A stretch of 64,000 nucleotides of DNA from Candidatus Pacearchaeota archaeon (GCA_017608345.1 JAFCGA010000002.1:79023-143022), one strand, 5' to 3'; positions 7,818-18,214 are shown, counted from the first letter of the stretch. The notes: generated from the sequence alone by a model not told the origin. Program-made: numbers and translations.

Positions 7818-7882
7818 TATTAGGGCTCTGGAAAATAGTTTTCTTTTTCCAGGGTTTTTCTTTTTAAAAAAAGAAAAAGCCT
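7818..7882 (-). other. 16S insertion 2 (65 nt, putative intron) splitting GGATTAGAT | ACCCTCGTAGTCC
   Basis: The interrupted block is the 785-806 'universal primer' region. The insert folds into two hairpins: TTTTTCTTTTT/AAAAAGAAAAA and CTGGAAAA/TTTTCCAG. Confidence 0.75.
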
Positions 7883-7980
7883 ATCTAATCCTCTTTGATC
7901 CCCTAGCTTTCATCCCTGACCGTCAGACCCGTTCTAGTTAGACGCCTTCGCCGCTGGCGGTCCTCTGGGGATTAAAACAA

Positions 7981-8071
7981 TGTAACTGCACTTTTTCGCT
8001 GCTTTGCAGCAAGTAAAGTAGTTTCTTTTGGGCTACCTTACACCTTTTCTTTCCTAAAGAAAAGGGGCAGT
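7981..8071 (-). other. 16S insertion 3 (about 91 nt, putative intron) splitting GAGCGGTAAAA | TTGTTTTAATCCCCAGAGGACC
   Basis: It interrupts the conserved GGTAAAATCCTGTAATCC-type block and carries a module shared with the tRNA-Ala insertion. Confidence 0.7.
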
Positions 8072-8729
8072 TTTTACCGCTCCCCCCAGAATACCTCTAA
8101 CTCCTCCCGGTCTCAAGCTAAGCAGTATTTTCAGCACGCCTGACAGTTGAGCTGCCAGATTTCACTAAAGACTTACTTAGCCGGCTACGGATGCTTTAGA
8201 CCCAATAAACGTGACCACCACTAAGGGCGCCGGGATTACCGCGGCGGCTGGCACCGGTCTTGCCCACCCTTTATTCCTGAAGCGTTTTGGACTCCAGAAA
8301 AGCAGACGCAAAAAGCGCCTGCACGTAGGATTCCCCCATCACGCTTGCGCGCATTGTGGAGTATTCAGAACTGCTGCACCCCGTAGGGCTGGGAGCCTTA
8401 TCTCAGTCTCCCTCTCAGGGCTAGGACTCTCATCCCCCTTACAGATCTTAGGTTTGGTGAGCCGTTACCTCACCAACAGCCTAATCTGCCGCCAACTCAT
8501 CCTATGGCGCCGAAGCTTTGGATAAAAGCGCATTCCAGCCTCTTTTATCTATCGGGAATTATCTTCAGTTTCCCGAAGTTATGCCCGACCATAGGGTAGA
8601 TTATTGACGTGTTACTGAGCCTTTCGCCATGATTTCTCATAGACTTGCATGTCTCATGGATCCTACTAGCAGTGGTCTCCCGCAGGATAAACGGGAATTG
8701 TGATCGCATTAAAATAGAATTGGCTATTA

Positions 8730-8745
8730 AAGCTATTCATCTACT
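8730..8745. repeat. 5'-flank arm of the 16S processing stem
   Basis: See 6965-6981. Confidence 0.75.
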
Positions 8746-8835
8746 AATTCATACCAATTTCTAACTGGTATACATAACAAACACAAATCCGACAAAAGTT
8801 GTCTTCACGTGTGCAATTCTATTGTAGAACTAGCC

Positions 8836-8850
8836 TTTAAAAATCTTTCT
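8836..8850 (-). promoter_or_regulatory. Candidate rRNA operon promoter (BRE AGAAAG + TATA ATTTTTAAA on the minus strand)
   Basis: This is the only strong TATA-like element upstream of the 16S processing stem. It is a guess from sequence only. Confidence 0.3.
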
Positions 8851-8891
8851 TATTGAATGCCGCAGATTTAGTAATTTGCAATTTAATTAGG

Positions 8892-8920
8892 GGTCTGACT
8901 GAAGGCGTATTTTGGTTATT
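8892..8920. repeat. 29-nt direct repeat, copy 1 (ggtctgactgaaggcgtattttggttatt)
   Basis: Exact second copy at 9010-9038, 118 bp apart. Confidence 0.9.
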
Positions 8921-9009
8921 GAACGTCGCGGGATTAATACTTTGCATTTTAATGCGGTGTTCAATTCCAAATCGCCGTTGGACCAATAATACCTAGCACT
9001 TTAGTGCTA

Positions 9010-9038
9010 GGTCTGACTGAAGGCGTATTTTGGTTATT
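9010..9038. repeat. 29-nt direct repeat, copy 2; overlaps the stop codon of the antiporter gene
   Basis: Identical to 8892-8920. Confidence 0.9.
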
Positions 9039-15801: not shown

Positions 15802-15860
15802 TTAATGAACTTGTAGTTAGAAGTATATAATTCTTTTTGATTATAACACTTACTTAAGCG

Positions 15861-16793
15861 CTATATTTTACTAAGAAACTCTTCCAAAGTTATTTTAGAG
15901 AACAACTGATAATGCTTGATTTGCTCACGCATCCACTTTTTAATACTCTTCTCTAAATTCGGATGCCTTCGGCACTGTTCTATGCACCAGTCCACTGCTC
16001 CGAGAATTCGGAGTTTAATGAAATAATAGATTGCTTTTTTCTCCTCCAAATTTAGTTTAATTCTAGATTGATATGCTTGCAGTAATAGTTTTATTTGGTT
16101 CCAATAAACTAATTTGATTTTAATTAGCATGTGCGCAATGAATATTGCTGATTCCGCAGCATAGAATCCATAATGAGCATCACCCCAATCGATAAGAACT
16201 ATCTTGTTTTCTCTCGACCGAAGCATATTTGATGCTTGAACATCCCCATGTATTACTCCTTCTTTTAGCTTAGATAATTCTAATTTCTTGATCGAAGCTA
16301 TCGTTTTTTTAAACTCGCCCGTAAGATCTATTTCGGGAATTGTTGATGTTATTTCTGTTGCAAACGGACCATAGCCTTCGCGCTTACCGCTTATTTCTGA
16401 AAGTGCTAGATGCATCTTTGCTAAATCTATTCCAAGAGCACTTATTTCTTCATTTGTAAATTTTACCGGATAGTTACCTTCGAAGAAATCTTGTAAGAAC
16501 ATAGTTTTCTTTTTGTAAGTTATATATGTAGTACCGGTCCTAGTTTTAATCAACTTAGGTGTAGCAATTTTCTTATCAGATGCTAGTGCTTGTATTTTAA
16601 TCTCGAATCTCGAATGGTCTCGATACTGTCCTTCGAAGATTTTTAGAACGTATTTTCCTTTCGAAGTTCGGATGAAATACACCGTTGTCTCAAGTGCTTG
16701 AGAACTGTGTCTTGCAGAATGGAATTCACCAATACAATAATTGCTTAATATTTTCTCGAAATCCGCTTTCACTAGTTTTGTTAATATAGTCAT
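15861..16793 (-). CDS. Aminoglycoside phosphotransferase/choline-kinase-fold small-molecule kinase
   Basis: HGDVQASNML catalytic loop and IDWGDA metal-binding motif. Confidence 0.7.
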   Translation of the reverse strand: MTILTKLVKADFEKILSNYCIGEFHSARHSSQALETTVYFIRTSKGKYVLKIFEGQYRDHSRFEIKIQALASDKKIATPKLIKTRTGTTYITYKKKTMFLQDFFEGNYPVKFTNEEISALGIDLAKMHLALSEISGKREGYGPFATEITSTIPEIDLTGEFKKTIASIKKLELSKLKEGVIHGDVQASNMLRSRENKIVLIDWGDAHYGFYAAESAIFIAHMLIKIKLVYWNQIKLLLQAYQSRIKLNLEEKKAIYYFIKLRILGAVDWCIEQCRRHPNLEKSIKKWMREQIKHYQLFSKITLEEFLSKI

Positions 16794-16827
16794 GTTTAGT
16801 TATTCTGAATCGAATATAAAAAAGTAG

Positions 16828-16947
16828 TGCCCCCAGCGGGATTTACCTCGAACGTACCGTTCGTATAAATGCTCGTCACGCTCGCATTTGAACCCACGTC
16901 ACTGGCTTGAAAGGCCAGCATGCTTGGCCGGGCTACACTATGGGGGC
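16828..16947 (-). tRNA. tRNA-Glu(UUC) with an inferred 45-nt insertion in the T-loop
   Basis: GCCCCCA TA GTGT..GCAT G CTGGC CT TTC AA GCCAG TGAC GTGGG TTCAAAT [45 nt ending GGTAAAT] CCCGC TGGGGGC A. Confidence 0.75.
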
Positions 16948-17040
16948 ATGAGTTTTCACAAGTAAAATTGGTTTAAAAAGATTTGGCTTTAAGGCATATT
17001 AAAGTAAGCAAAGGGAAGAGTAAATTATTATAATTCTGAA

Positions 17041-17733
17041 TTAAATTTTTCTGAAGCTTACGATCCAGTGCGCGTTTAACCCTTCTTTTCTGGAATAAAC
17101 GATTTCTTGCATACTTAAAATCATTAAAGAATTTCTTGCTGCTAACTCCTCGAGCTCTTCTCTAGAATAATGATGTAATATTATTCCTGCTTTCTTCCCA
17201 GCTTTTTGTACAAAGGTAATTCCTCTATCTGGGACACGCTCTCCGGGCAACTGTCTCATCTTAGTCGATCTCACGGATAATAGAAATAACCCGTTCTTCT
17301 TTAGAACTCTGCTAACTTCAGAGAATGATTTTTCAGCACCCTTCCAATCGTTATGCTGAAAAACACGCATGCTTAAAATATAATCGAAAGTAGCTTTTTT
17401 ATAAGGTATTTTATAAAAACTTCCTACCCGAACATCTGCTTCGAGCTTATCTTCTTTTAATATTTCCTTAAGTTGTGCTATCGCACTTTTAGAAATATCA
17501 ATTCCGTAAGTTTTGAAGCCTAATTTGGCAACGTATTTAGTATTTCTACCATTTCCGCATCCGATATCTAAAATACTTCCCTTCTTGAATTCATCTCCGT
17601 ATCTGTTTAAGAAATTTCGGACGTGCGGATCTACGTTTCGCTTAAGATAAGGCTTAGTCTTAGTATATCTTGTATCCCATATTTTTTTAGCCGCGTCTTC
17701 GCGGGATTTAAATTTAGCAGTTATATTTATCAT
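17041..17733 (-). CDS. Class I SAM-dependent methyltransferase
   Basis: ILDIGCGNGRN motif I. Confidence 0.8.
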   Translation of the reverse strand: MINITAKFKSREDAAKKIWDTRYTKTKPYLKRNVDPHVRNFLNRYGDEFKKGSILDIGCGNGRNTKYVAKLGFKTYGIDISKSAIAQLKEILKEDKLEADVRVGSFYKIPYKKATFDYILSMRVFQHNDWKGAEKSFSEVSRVLKKNGLFLLSVRSTKMRQLPGERVPDRGITFVQKAGKKAGIILHHYSREELEELAARNSLMILSMQEIVYSRKEGLNAHWIVSFRKI

Positions 17734-17805
17734 TATATGTTCGTAATGTATGTTTATTATATGTCTTATTGGATATTATTCCGCCGTCAGTTTTTAAAAA
17801 GAATA

Positions 17806-17981
17806 TGGCCGAGATGAGATTTGAATTCGTGCACCAATTCCAGTTTAAGGGAAAGGGCGGCTCACGACCTCTGGTTGGCTTAAACGCATCGTAGCCGATG
17901 CGTGTCATATAAGACCAGCGCTCTAACCAGATTACTCACTTTCTCTTTTTCTAAAAGAGAAAAGCTCTAAGCTACTCGGCC
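17806..17981 (-). tRNA. tRNA-Ile(UAU) with three inferred insertions: D-loop 17931-17965, canonical 37/38 site 17877-17907, T-stem/T-loop junction 17826-17860
   Basis: Exons of 16+23+16+20 nt assemble into a 75-nt cloverleaf: GGCCGAG TA GCTT AGACTGGTTA GAGC G CTGGT CTTATAA ACCAG AGGTC GTGAG TTCAAAT CTCAT CTCGGCC A. At the 37/38 insertion, CTTA/TAAG forms the 4-bp helix of a bulge-helix-bulge (BHB) splice motif. Confidence 0.7.
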
Positions 17982-17984
17982 AAG

Positions 17985-18214
17985 CGCCCGTGGTCAGATT
18001 TTCTAAAGCCTGGGAACCAAGGTTCCCTTCTTTCTTCCAGAGAGAAATCCCCGAGATTTCTCTTGGCCACGCGAAACTTAACGAGTTTCGCTTGGTTTCC
18101 CGAGGGTTTTTCTTTCTTCGGGAAGAAAGAAAAAGGCTCTTTGAACTGACGGCCTCACGGTTTCTAACATAAGGCTAACAGCCGTGCGCTATAACCAGAC
18201 TAAGCTACACGGGC
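17985..18214 (-). tRNA. tRNA-Asn(GUU) with an inferred 14-nt anticodon-loop insertion (18162-18175) and a 141-nt T-loop insertion (17999-18139)
   Basis: GCCCGTG TA GCTT..AGC G CACGG CT GTT A [14] A CCGTG AGGCC GTCAG TTCAAA [141] T CTGAC CACGGGC G. It lies only 3 nt upstream of the tRNA-Ile 5' end. Confidence 0.65.

Follow-up and report, generated by a model that had tools for sequence, protein, structure and literature searches.

A 16S rRNA intron and a tRNA-Asn intron of a DPANN-like archaeon are probably two copies of one short, formerly mobile element

Transposition of tRNA introns has been deduced in the Thermoproteales, where spread within a genome is implied and the mechanism is unknown (Fujishima et al. 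2010, as reported in PMC4090602). Introns in the 16S rRNA genes of Thermoproteales and their relatives occupy loci 374, 548, 722, 781, 803, 901, 908, 919, 978, 1093, 1205, 1213 and 1391 (PMC4496867), and in ARMAN-2 (Candidatus Micrarchaeum acidiphilum) T-loop introns at tRNA position 59/60, which have a relaxed splice motif, are cleaved in vitro by the epsilon2 splicing endonuclease (PMC3239211). Here we describe a stretch of 64,000 nucleotides (nt) from Candidatus Pacearchaeota archaeon (GCA_017608345.1, JAFCGA010000002.1:79023-143022; the whole stretch is called the window below) in which a 65-nt insertion in the 16S rRNA gene (16S intron 2) resembles a 141-nt insertion in the T loop of a tRNA-Asn gene. 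We propose, at a probability of roughly 0.8, that the two are homologous archaeal introns of the bulge-helix-bulge (BHB) type and represent two copies of one short non-coding element that was formerly mobile.

The tRNA-Asn intron shares with the ARMAN-2 introns its position, a relaxed motif of the hBH type and a DPANN host. It differs in that the ARMAN-2 example has 13 nt, whereas ours has 141 nt with a structured module. The 16S introns of Thermoproteales, Desulfurococcales and Caldiarchaeum (PMC4496867) are likewise bounded by BHB motifs, some of them are short and consist of a hairpin only, without a homing endonuclease, and the 907/908 locus is occupied in the window too; however, neither 793/794 nor the loop of helix 23, where the larger insertions of our 16S gene lie, is among the 13 loci. 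Those introns are thought to have been moved by homing endonucleases, whereas the present ones, with their 65 nt and 141 nt, have no room for an open reading frame (ORF) of the LAGLIDADG type. The parts of the two introns and of their host genes are listed here, with Y1 standing for the pyrimidine arm of the hairpin, R1 for its purine arm and R2 for a third, purine strand.

7036-8698, minus strand: 16S rRNA gene, host of intron 2 (Rfam RF01959, 1322.8 bits), with three insertions in all
7818-7882, minus strand: 16S rRNA intron 2, 65 nt, in the 790 loop at U793/A794 of the E. coli numbering
7868-7878, minus strand: pyrimidine arm Y1 of 16S intron 2, UUUUUCUUUUU
7855-7865, minus strand: purine arm R1 of 16S intron 2, AAAAAGAAAAA
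7839-7854, minus strand: linker CCCUGG (7854-7849) and third purine tract R2, AAAAAGAAAA (7848-7839), of 16S intron 2; R2 mirrors R1
17985-18214, minus strand: tRNA-Asn(GUU) gene, exons 18214-18176, 18161-18140 and 17998-17985
17999-18139, minus strand: T-loop intron of tRNA-Asn, 141 nt, position 59/60
18162-18175, minus strand: small anticodon-loop intron of tRNA-Asn, 14 nt
18099-18134, minus strand: module copy of tRNA-Asn, with Y1 UUUUUCUUUCUUC (18134-18122), loop CC, R1 GAAGAAAGAAAAA (18119-18107) and linker CCCUCGGG (18106-18099)
18037-18095, minus strand: nested 59-nt insertion of two hairpins (CCA-stem-UGG units), which splits R2 of the tRNA-Asn copy
18027-18036, minus strand: distal piece of the split R2 of the tRNA-Asn copy, AAGAAAGAAG

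Compared with the Rfam archaeal small-subunit rRNA model, the 16S gene carries insertions of about 92 nt (helix 23 loop), 65 nt (790 loop) and 45 nt (about 907/908); in the Rfam alignment the second appears as a 66-nt insert between GAUA and CC of GGAUUAGAUACCC. Read in RNA sense, 16S intron 2 is AGGC-U5CU5-UU-A5GA5-CCCUGG-A5GA4-CUA-UUUUCCAG-AGCC-CUAA-UA and interrupts the 790 loop within GGAUUAGAUA|CCC. Its hairpin is a perfect one of 11 bp with an all-pyrimidine 5' arm, and its second purine tract can also pair with the downstream pyrimidine tract (CUGGAAAA/UUUUCCAG), as in L085, a Micrarchaeota copy in a tRNA; many family copies, of which no systematic count was made, run straight into a start codon and have no downstream pyrimidine tract for R2. 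Excision of the intron restores GGAUUAGAUACCCUCGUAG, with the junction GGAUUAGAU|A CCCUCGUAG. The boundaries form a canonical hBHBh' motif, that is, two opposite 3-nt bulges (AU|A and UA|A) with a 4-bp helix between them (H, UUAG of the upstream exon with CUAA of the intron), flanked by h (GAGG/CCUC, native helix 24) and h' (GGCU/AGCC). In archaeal pre-tRNA splicing both cuts fall after the second nucleotide of the bulge. Cutting 16S intron 2 by this rule gives exactly GGAUUAGAU+ACCCUCG and restores the universal loop GGAUUAGAUACCC; the rule also agrees with the canonical 37/38 intron of L085, as read from its sequence.

The tRNA-Asn gene in its unspliced form is detected neither by ARAGORN nor by Rfam. 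Once 18139-17999 are excised, a T arm GUCAG-UUCAAAU-CUGAC and a cloverleaf accepted by ARAGORN appear. The anticodon loop is CUGUUA..A, and the preferred placement of the small intron yields the anticodon GUU (ARAGORN, 22 solutions). This small intron repeats a hexamer (C-UGUUAG-CCUUA-UGUUAG-AAA); ARAGORN therefore also offers a splice with the anticodon AGA, and the boundary is ambiguous from the sequence. At the T-loop junction the T stem is GUCAG/CUGAC, the 3' bulge AA|U beside it is canonical and the 5' bulge is AA|G; taken as a whole, with the imperfect helices described below, the junction fits the relaxed hBH class rather than a strict BHB. The hairpin of this intron is perfect over 13 bp, again with an all-pyrimidine 5' arm.

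That the insertions are instead expansion segments retained in the mature rRNA and tRNA can draw on the frequency of rRNA insertions in small-genome archaea and bacteria; we regard this as highly improbable, because the universally conserved 790 loop would stay split although a perfect 3-nt/4-bp/3-nt BHB lies in just the register that restores it, because 141 nt within a T loop are incompatible with tRNA function, and because 59/60 introns are cleaved in ARMAN-2 (PMC3239211).

The original prediction held that 16S insertion 2 resembles the 5' part of the tRNA-Asn insertion. The strings on which it relied were located on the minus strand, in RNA sense, where it had put them, and both insertions indeed share AG(G/C)C, a perfect pyrimidine/purine hairpin and then CCCU(C)GG(G)AAA, with stems that differ in length (11 bp in 16S, 13 bp in tRNA-Asn) yet stay fully complementary. 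The resemblance is real and wider than claimed, since the 3' ends of the introns match too (UUCC(C)AG(A)GCYYUARWAA; UUCCAGAGCCCUAAUA versus UUCCCAGGCUUUAGAAAA). It also exceeds what shuffled pyrimidine/purine-tract hairpins produce. The local alignment score of the two introns is 39, compared with 18.6 +/- 3.0 for dinucleotide shuffles (39 reached in 0/2000) and 21.5 +/- 3.9 for a null in which arm order and flanks are shuffled but each sequence retains a perfect pyrimidine/purine hairpin, unchanged in length and composition (reached in 2/5000). Removal of the nested insertion from the tRNA-Asn intron brings the score to 50, a value that the null, with its maximum of 38, never attains (0/5000), and with the hairpins deleted from both introns the flanks still score 30 against 10.6 +/- 2.1 (0/5000). 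When further pyrimidine/purine hairpin elements from the window are aligned with either intron, the scores are only 18-26. When the introns are used as BLAST queries within the window, each is the other's best non-self match, palindromic self-matches aside (E = 0.003). A purely compositional origin, in which chance convergence of pyrimidine/purine tracts would serve the need of an AT-rich genome for stable intron hairpins, is scarcely credible: the window does hold several such hairpins, and the nine identical stem positions alone would by our own estimate have p of roughly 0.07 for U-rich arms, but the structured nulls just given, together with the hairpin-free flank score and the recurrence of the same flanks at 41 sites in other genomes (see below), rule composition out as the cause of the likeness.

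Of the two copies, the one in tRNA-Asn carries the nested insertion. Joined, the R2 pieces AAA (18098-18096) and AAGAAAGAAG of the tRNA-Asn copy read AAAAAGAAAGAAG, the exact mirror of R1 (GAAGAAAGAAAAA). The order pyrimidine stem, loop, purine stem, short loop, mirrored purine stem, known as the class II plan, is plain in 16S intron 2 (U5CU5 / A5GA5 / A5GA4) and appears in the tRNA-Asn copy only once the nested 59 nt are removed; a global alignment after this removal has 55 of the 65 positions of 16S intron 2 identical. Since removal restores both the mirrored R2 and this degree of identity, we read the tRNA-Asn intron as the element of 16S intron 2, later interrupted. The two-hairpin module of the nested insertion recurs in the window at 56178-56237 (75% over 60 nt, E = 5e-5) and looks like a second small repeat or mobile element. 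At 56178-56251 it stands just upstream of an ORF that starts at 56255, with UUUCA repeated on both sides; an example of its CCA-stem-UGG unit is CCAAGAGAAAUC ucggg GAUUUCUCUCUGG.

The link between rRNA and tRNA insertions is not confined to this pair. As the original prediction had it, both larger 16S insertions are tied to tRNA insertions, 16S insertion 1 matching the T-loop intron of the spacer tRNA-Ala at 84% over 62 nt (E = 2e-13 within the window). These sister elements, which form a second subfamily, and an intergenic member of the same architecture are as follows.

3609-6543 and 7036-8698, minus strand: 23S and 16S genes of the rRNA operon, whose spacer holds tRNA-Ala
7980-8071, minus strand: 16S intron 1, 92 nt, helix 23 loop; Y1, R1, linker and R2 are CCUUUUCUUU / AAAGAAAAGG / UGUAAGGUAGCCC / AAAAGAAA
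6676-6786, minus strand: tRNA-Ala T-loop intron, partner of 16S intron 1; CCUUUCUUUU / AAAAGAAAGG / linker UGUAAGGUAGCCC / AAAGAAAA
52649-52693, minus strand: intergenic member; UUUUCUCUUUC gc GAAAGAGAAAA CUAGGCAUCC AAAAGAGAAAG

The BHB of 16S intron 1 is canonical (GUAA/UUAC, bulges AA|A and AU|U, CUGC/GCAG). Its 13-nt linker UGUAAGGUAGCCC is identical in the tRNA-Ala intron, and a single G/C position shifts jointly in Y1, R1 and the mirrored R2 between the two. The intergenic copy is antisense to its flanking ORFs and ends at the ATG of the ORF at 52694; on the mRNA strand it has the pyrimidine-motif (U.A-U type) arrangement.

Outside the window the module belongs to a family that runs through DPANN archaea. 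The pattern U5CU3-N4-12-A3GA5CCCU was scanned in 185,579 species genomes, one genome per species, and gave 88 loci, about half of which are bacterial chance matches without further similarity. A stricter expression that demands flanks left 41 sites outside the window whose flanks are absent from the search pattern, namely AGSC ahead of the hairpin and GG(G)AAAAAGAAA (GG(G)A5GA3) after CCCU. All but one of the 41 lie in metagenome-assembled genomes (MAGs) labelled Micrarchaeota, Iainarchaeum, Aenigmatarchaeota, Nanoarchaeia, Woesearchaeota, Methanobacteriota archaeon or archaeon, the exception being L011 in a bacterial Eubacteriales MAG. L011 and L069, also from a Eubacteriales MAG, have the hairpin followed by CCCUUGGAAAAAGAAAC-like sequence, a likeness that may be due to chance or to a related terminator-like element outside the archaea. 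A covariance model trained on 39 sequences that all come from other genomes, and not from the window, finds both introns, with 58.1 bits (18139-18083) and 57.1 bits (7883-7831) at E of about 1e-11; the next matches in the window are antisense hairpins at 25-28 bits, and other pyrimidine/purine hairpins stay below 22 bits. The flanks and the third tract are the independent part of this evidence. Rfam 15, including its group I and group II introns, has no match at either intron at the gathering threshold or at E up to 5, and searches of open-access full text found no description of the module. Its shared core comprises AGSC, the pyrimidine arm, a loop, the purine arm, CCCU(N)GG(G) and the second purine tract that mirrors the purine arm.

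This mirrored strand is the most distinctive feature of the family. In all members of the family the purine tract past the linker repeats the purine arm in reversed order without complementing it, and it changes together with the arm, as in the pairs GGAGAAAGAAAAA/AAAAAGAAAGAGA, AAGAAAAGAAAAA/AAAAAGAAAAGAA and GAAAGAAAAA/AAAAAGAAAG. In a seed-free test we collected from the fetched loci and the window every perfect hairpin with a stem of 9 bp or more and only pyrimidines in its 5' arm. After exclusion of arms with mirror symmetry of their own, 217 hairpins were left; in 52 of these the purine arm is mirrored perfectly and over its full length at a distance of 4-16 nt downstream, compared with 4 that have a direct copy and with a mean of 1.16 (maximum 5) in composition-matched arm shuffles. 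The covariation covers at least 28 distinct arm sequences from Micrarchaeota, Iainarchaeota, Aenigmatarchaeota and Nanoarchaeia, with linkers that are unrelated and mostly mini-palindromic (CCCUNGGG, CCUUAAGG, CGCUGGCG, CAUUAAUG, CGUUUAUG, CUAGGCAUCC). When the three strands are laid side by side, 681 of the 861 layers are U/A/A and 126 are C/G/G. Copying by polymerases cannot yield mirror repeats. The sole structural rationale for them that we know of is a triple helix. By its sequence the module has a class II intrastrand-triplex architecture, the signature of a triple helix that it may form as RNA or as DNA. The foot of the hairpin follows a rule of its own: AGCC before the arm goes with NGGG in 27 copies and AGGC with GG in 11, with one exception, which would fit extra C.G-C layers at the foot of a triplex.

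In a census of where the copies lie, each element was excised at a range of boundaries and ARAGORN was asked for a tRNA across the junction. A sense-strand tRNA solution was found for 19 of 72 elements, about 16 being truly inside a tRNA and 3 at a tRNA 3' end; the positions are the anticodon loop (37/38), the T loop and the place directly past the discriminator base. Candidate antisense intron solutions from the same tRNA re-parse number 6. One copy, L068, lies in the 16S gene of another archaeon at about position 978. The identical module U5CU3CUCUUUGCGGAGA3GA5CCCUGGA5GA3GAGACGCC occurs in L085 (tRNA 37/38) and L019 (tRNA T loop), which come from two Micrarchaeota MAGs, and in L085 as in both window introns the start of the module is exactly the 5' splice site. 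Five opposite-strand copies adjoin the 5' end of a tRNA (L020, L052, L064, L081, L093); in a leader transcript there, U-rich, U-rich and A-rich tracts would come immediately before the RNase P site. Of the intergenic copies, 28 point the same way as the adjacent ORFs and 11 the opposite way. Long direct repeats (19-51 nt) or duplicated tRNA ends flank about 10 of 71 elements and are heterogeneous, including tandem tRNA genes, duplicated tRNA ends and 30-nt repeats; in L009:3345, L080:89, L050 (minus strand, index 1265), L072, L071 and L046 the flanking direct repeats end exactly at the AGSC foot. In L050 the element and a 35-nt duplication lie in frame within a small Lys-rich ORF, the duplicated part beginning with the third purine tract. 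In L071 and L072 a duplicated tRNA 5' fragment is followed by the element and by an intact tRNA whose intron again holds an element. Neither of the window introns showed target-site or flanking duplications. A metagenome scan with the 16S exon-intron junction pattern GGATTAGATAGSCTTTTTC returned 24 loci, all of them chance matches outside rRNA, and recovered no orthologous intron.

Put together, these observations suggest the following course of events. Each intron opens at its first nucleotide with the module of about 50 nt, and a short segment at its 3' end would complete the splice motif by pairing with the start of the intron and with the upstream exon; the tRNA splicing endonuclease would cut both introns from their precursors and the RtcB ligase would join the exons. 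The copies would have reached their different genes through mobility of the intron or element, of the kind deduced for tRNA introns of Thermoproteales but crossing between tRNA and rRNA genes, and the tRNA-Asn copy would later have been invaded by the second, two-hairpin element. The module family is spread through DPANN archaea, with members in tRNA and rRNA introns, at tRNA gene ends and in short intergenic spacers.

Several points weigh against this account. Splicing of the two introns is predicted from the motif by itself. The tRNA-Asn BHB is imperfect, since H (UUCA/AGAA) shrinks to UUC/GAA, 3 bp, with an A.A mismatch and the h' helix AGCC/GGCU has two extra U. Minimum free energy folding reproduces the BHB helices of 16S intron 2, but in a 4x4 internal-loop register, and in the tRNA-Asn intron it favours a fold in which the pyrimidine arm pairs with the third strand, itself almost mirror-symmetric; because of this register shift and this alternative pairing, energy folding decides neither for nor against the motif. 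Within the covariance score, what the hairpin contributes is circular, because the training loci were gathered by a pattern taken from these introns. The scans yielded no close relative with or without the introns from which gain, loss or direction of transfer might be read. Published work bars purine-motif triplexes in RNA (PMC4666352), so that any role of the mirror strand in the intron RNA is hypothetical. Finally, in copies with CCCU-N-GGG the base at -5 from the pyrimidine arm is Watson-Crick complementary to N in 29/29 cases (columns 1 and 40 of the alignment of loci L006-L093; A-U 12, C-G 8, G-C 7, U-A 2), which implies a 3-bp helix NAG/CUN that is sterically hard to reconcile with a simple fold-back triplex; this helix may mark an alternative conformation.

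What the module does is a separate matter from the homology of the two introns. The possibility that we place first, though at less than even odds, is that of a repeat at the level of DNA, which would be the A/T-rich counterpart in archaea of the PIT/BoxC/TMECO repeats of bacteria and possibly a miniature mobile or recombinogenic element; it would land near or in tRNA and rRNA genes and survive there only where splicing takes it out of the RNA. It has the class II plan of TMECO, and either DNA strand would be capable of forming a triplex, the complementary strand reading Hoogsteen-pyrimidine, pyrimidine, purine. Both orientations occur at tRNA borders, the flanking repeats and duplicated tRNA fragments described above recall the Caldiarchaeum model (PMC3293823), and some genomes hold many copies, for instance at least 7 loci in one Nanoarchaeia MAG. 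On the other hand, no transposase or integrase was linked to the module, the two window introns lack flanking duplications, a scan of viral contigs with the hairpin pattern gave 4 chance matches without the family flanks, and the orientation bias of the intronic copies argues for a constraint at the RNA level or an RNA-mediated route.

This same bias, together with the coincidence of the first module base with the splice site, favours an RNA-level or RNA-mediated process. One such role, which we hold to be somewhat unlikely, is that the second purine tract, by folding back on the hairpin, completes a triple helix of the purine motif (A.A-U / G.G-C) and makes a rigid, self-folding core beside h', which would present the BHB to the endonuclease or stabilise the excised, circularised intron. 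The sense-strand tRNA solutions, the 5' splice sites of the window introns and L085, the co-orientation of intergenic copies with ORFs and the tracking of the C count before the pyrimidine arm by the G count before the third strand (27, 11) are all in keeping with it. Against it stand the in vitro exclusion of RNA strands from purine-motif triplexes (as cited in PMC4666352), the copies antisense to an adjacent tRNA or to ORFs, including 52649-52693, and the antisense intron solutions. Moreover, in the tRNA-Asn copy 59 inserted nucleotides are tolerated within the third strand, and in imperfect stems the counts of U.G versus C.A mismatches (7 versus 10, mostly register artefacts) are uninformative as to strand specificity. 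The reported exclusion of RNA strands, the existence of antisense copies and the tolerance of the insertion also speak for the DNA-level reading. The stronger version, in which the module is a natural RNA purine-motif (A.A-U / G.G-C) triple helix that serves as the folding core of mobile BHB introns moving between tRNA and rRNA genes in DPANN archaea, seems unlikely to us; a variant of it would have triplex pairing between hairpin and purine tract help to choose the insertion site.

A role in transcription termination or as an RNA-end element outside introns, with U5CU3 acting as an archaeal oligo-U terminator and the intronic copies being secondary, appears still less probable. Copies do lie directly past the tRNA discriminator base in L007, L012, L071 and L072, 14 copies come within 60 nt after a sense ORF stop, and T-tracts are present on both strands. 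However, a terminator has no need of a mirror-repeat third strand with position-specific G, strong U-tracts in a 16S intron would be harmful if they terminated, and 14 copies abut the next start codon, without room for a separate promoter.

The host of these introns can be placed only broadly. The window has a G+C content of about 38% and its DNA is archaeal. The arginyl-tRNA synthetase (ArgRS) encoded at 12193-13896 has a best non-self match of 53% identity, and its named matches, at 40-50% identity, come from Woesearchaeota, Altiarchaeota and Aenigmatarchaeota MAGs; since these relatives are both distant and DPANN-like, we take the host to be an uncultured DPANN-like lineage. The contigs with the nearest ArgRS relative (53% identity) show no synteny with the window.

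Other RNA genes of the window stand out as well. 16S insertion 3 (45 nt, about 7653-7697, minus strand), at the known 907/908 intron locus, is an ordinary A/U hairpin without the pyrimidine/purine/mirror plan. A tRNA match at 10499-10641 (minus strand) spans 143 nt and must hold one or more introns, a weak one at 16879-16947 (minus strand, 22.6 bits) has a 3' part that seems displaced, and an archaeal RNase P RNA at 985-1310 (minus strand) scores 69.7 bits against an Rfam gathering threshold of 84. Directly after tRNA-Asn, at about 17800-17978 (minus strand), lies a second heavily interrupted tRNA that the tools do not detect; its anticodon loop CUUAUAU makes it possibly a tRNA-Ile(UAU), its D-arm insertion is a pyrimidine/purine hairpin (17962-17940) without a mirrored third strand, and more insertions follow downstream.

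If the proposed homology holds, intron transposition, so far inferred among the tRNA genes of Thermoproteales, would be seen to cross between genes for rRNA and tRNA, here in a DPANN-like archaeon, and the nested insertion would order two events in time. The family is also a short element with three-strand covariation that is found in several DPANN phyla and is absent from Rfam, and it offers a concrete test case for natural RNA purine-motif triple helices or for a biological role of intrastrand DNA triplexes. Introns of this kind hide tRNA genes from ARAGORN and Rfam and interrupt the site at about 785-806 to which widely used 16S primers bind; because of both effects their carriers are under-detected in surveys and poorly annotated.

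Each kind of feature met here is known already. What appears new, judging from the sequences, is one module that unites features of BHB introns, of intron transposition and of intrastrand triplex repeats and is conserved across DPANN archaea. Bacterial intrastrand triplex repeats of the PIT/BoxC/TMECO type were reportedly described by Hoyne and colleagues in 2000. They are class II repeats, in which a pyrimidine stem, a loop, a purine stem, a short loop and a mirrored purine stem follow one another (Holder et al. 2015, PMC4666352), and they share with the present module this order, their dispersal in many copies through a genome and a link to loci that are rearranged. They are, however, G/C-rich, bacterial and intergenic, whereas the module is A/U-rich and archaeal, is transcribed as part of the precursors of tRNA and rRNA, and has a conserved linker, CCCU(N)GG(G), and AGSC at its foot. 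The U.A-U triple helices of MALAT1 and of the PAN element for nuclear expression (ENE), in which a U-rich hairpin clamps an A-rich tract, resemble the complementary strand of the module (U-rich / U-rich / A-rich), and this complementary version stands directly upstream of a tRNA 5' end in L020, L052, L064, L081 and L093, which recalls MALAT1-mascRNA; on the intron strand, however, the third strand is purine and not pyrimidine, so that the likeness is one of form only.

For mobility the nearest parallels are archaeal. The tRNA disruption model for Caldiarchaeum subterraneum has a stray tRNA 5' fragment, an inserted element and an intact tRNA with an extra intron (PMC3293823), a layout shared by L071 and L072; its element, however, has 1.8 kb and a recombinase, whereas the intervening DNA here is about 150 nt and non-coding. 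With the tRNA introns of Thermoproteales, as far as PMC4090602 reports on them, the likeness lies in the occurrence of the same module in different tRNAs and at different positions. The present introns differ from them in the sharing between rRNA and tRNA genes, in the DPANN-like host, in the nested insertion that one copy carries, and in the mirror strand of the module, which PMC4090602 does not mention for the introns of Thermoproteales.

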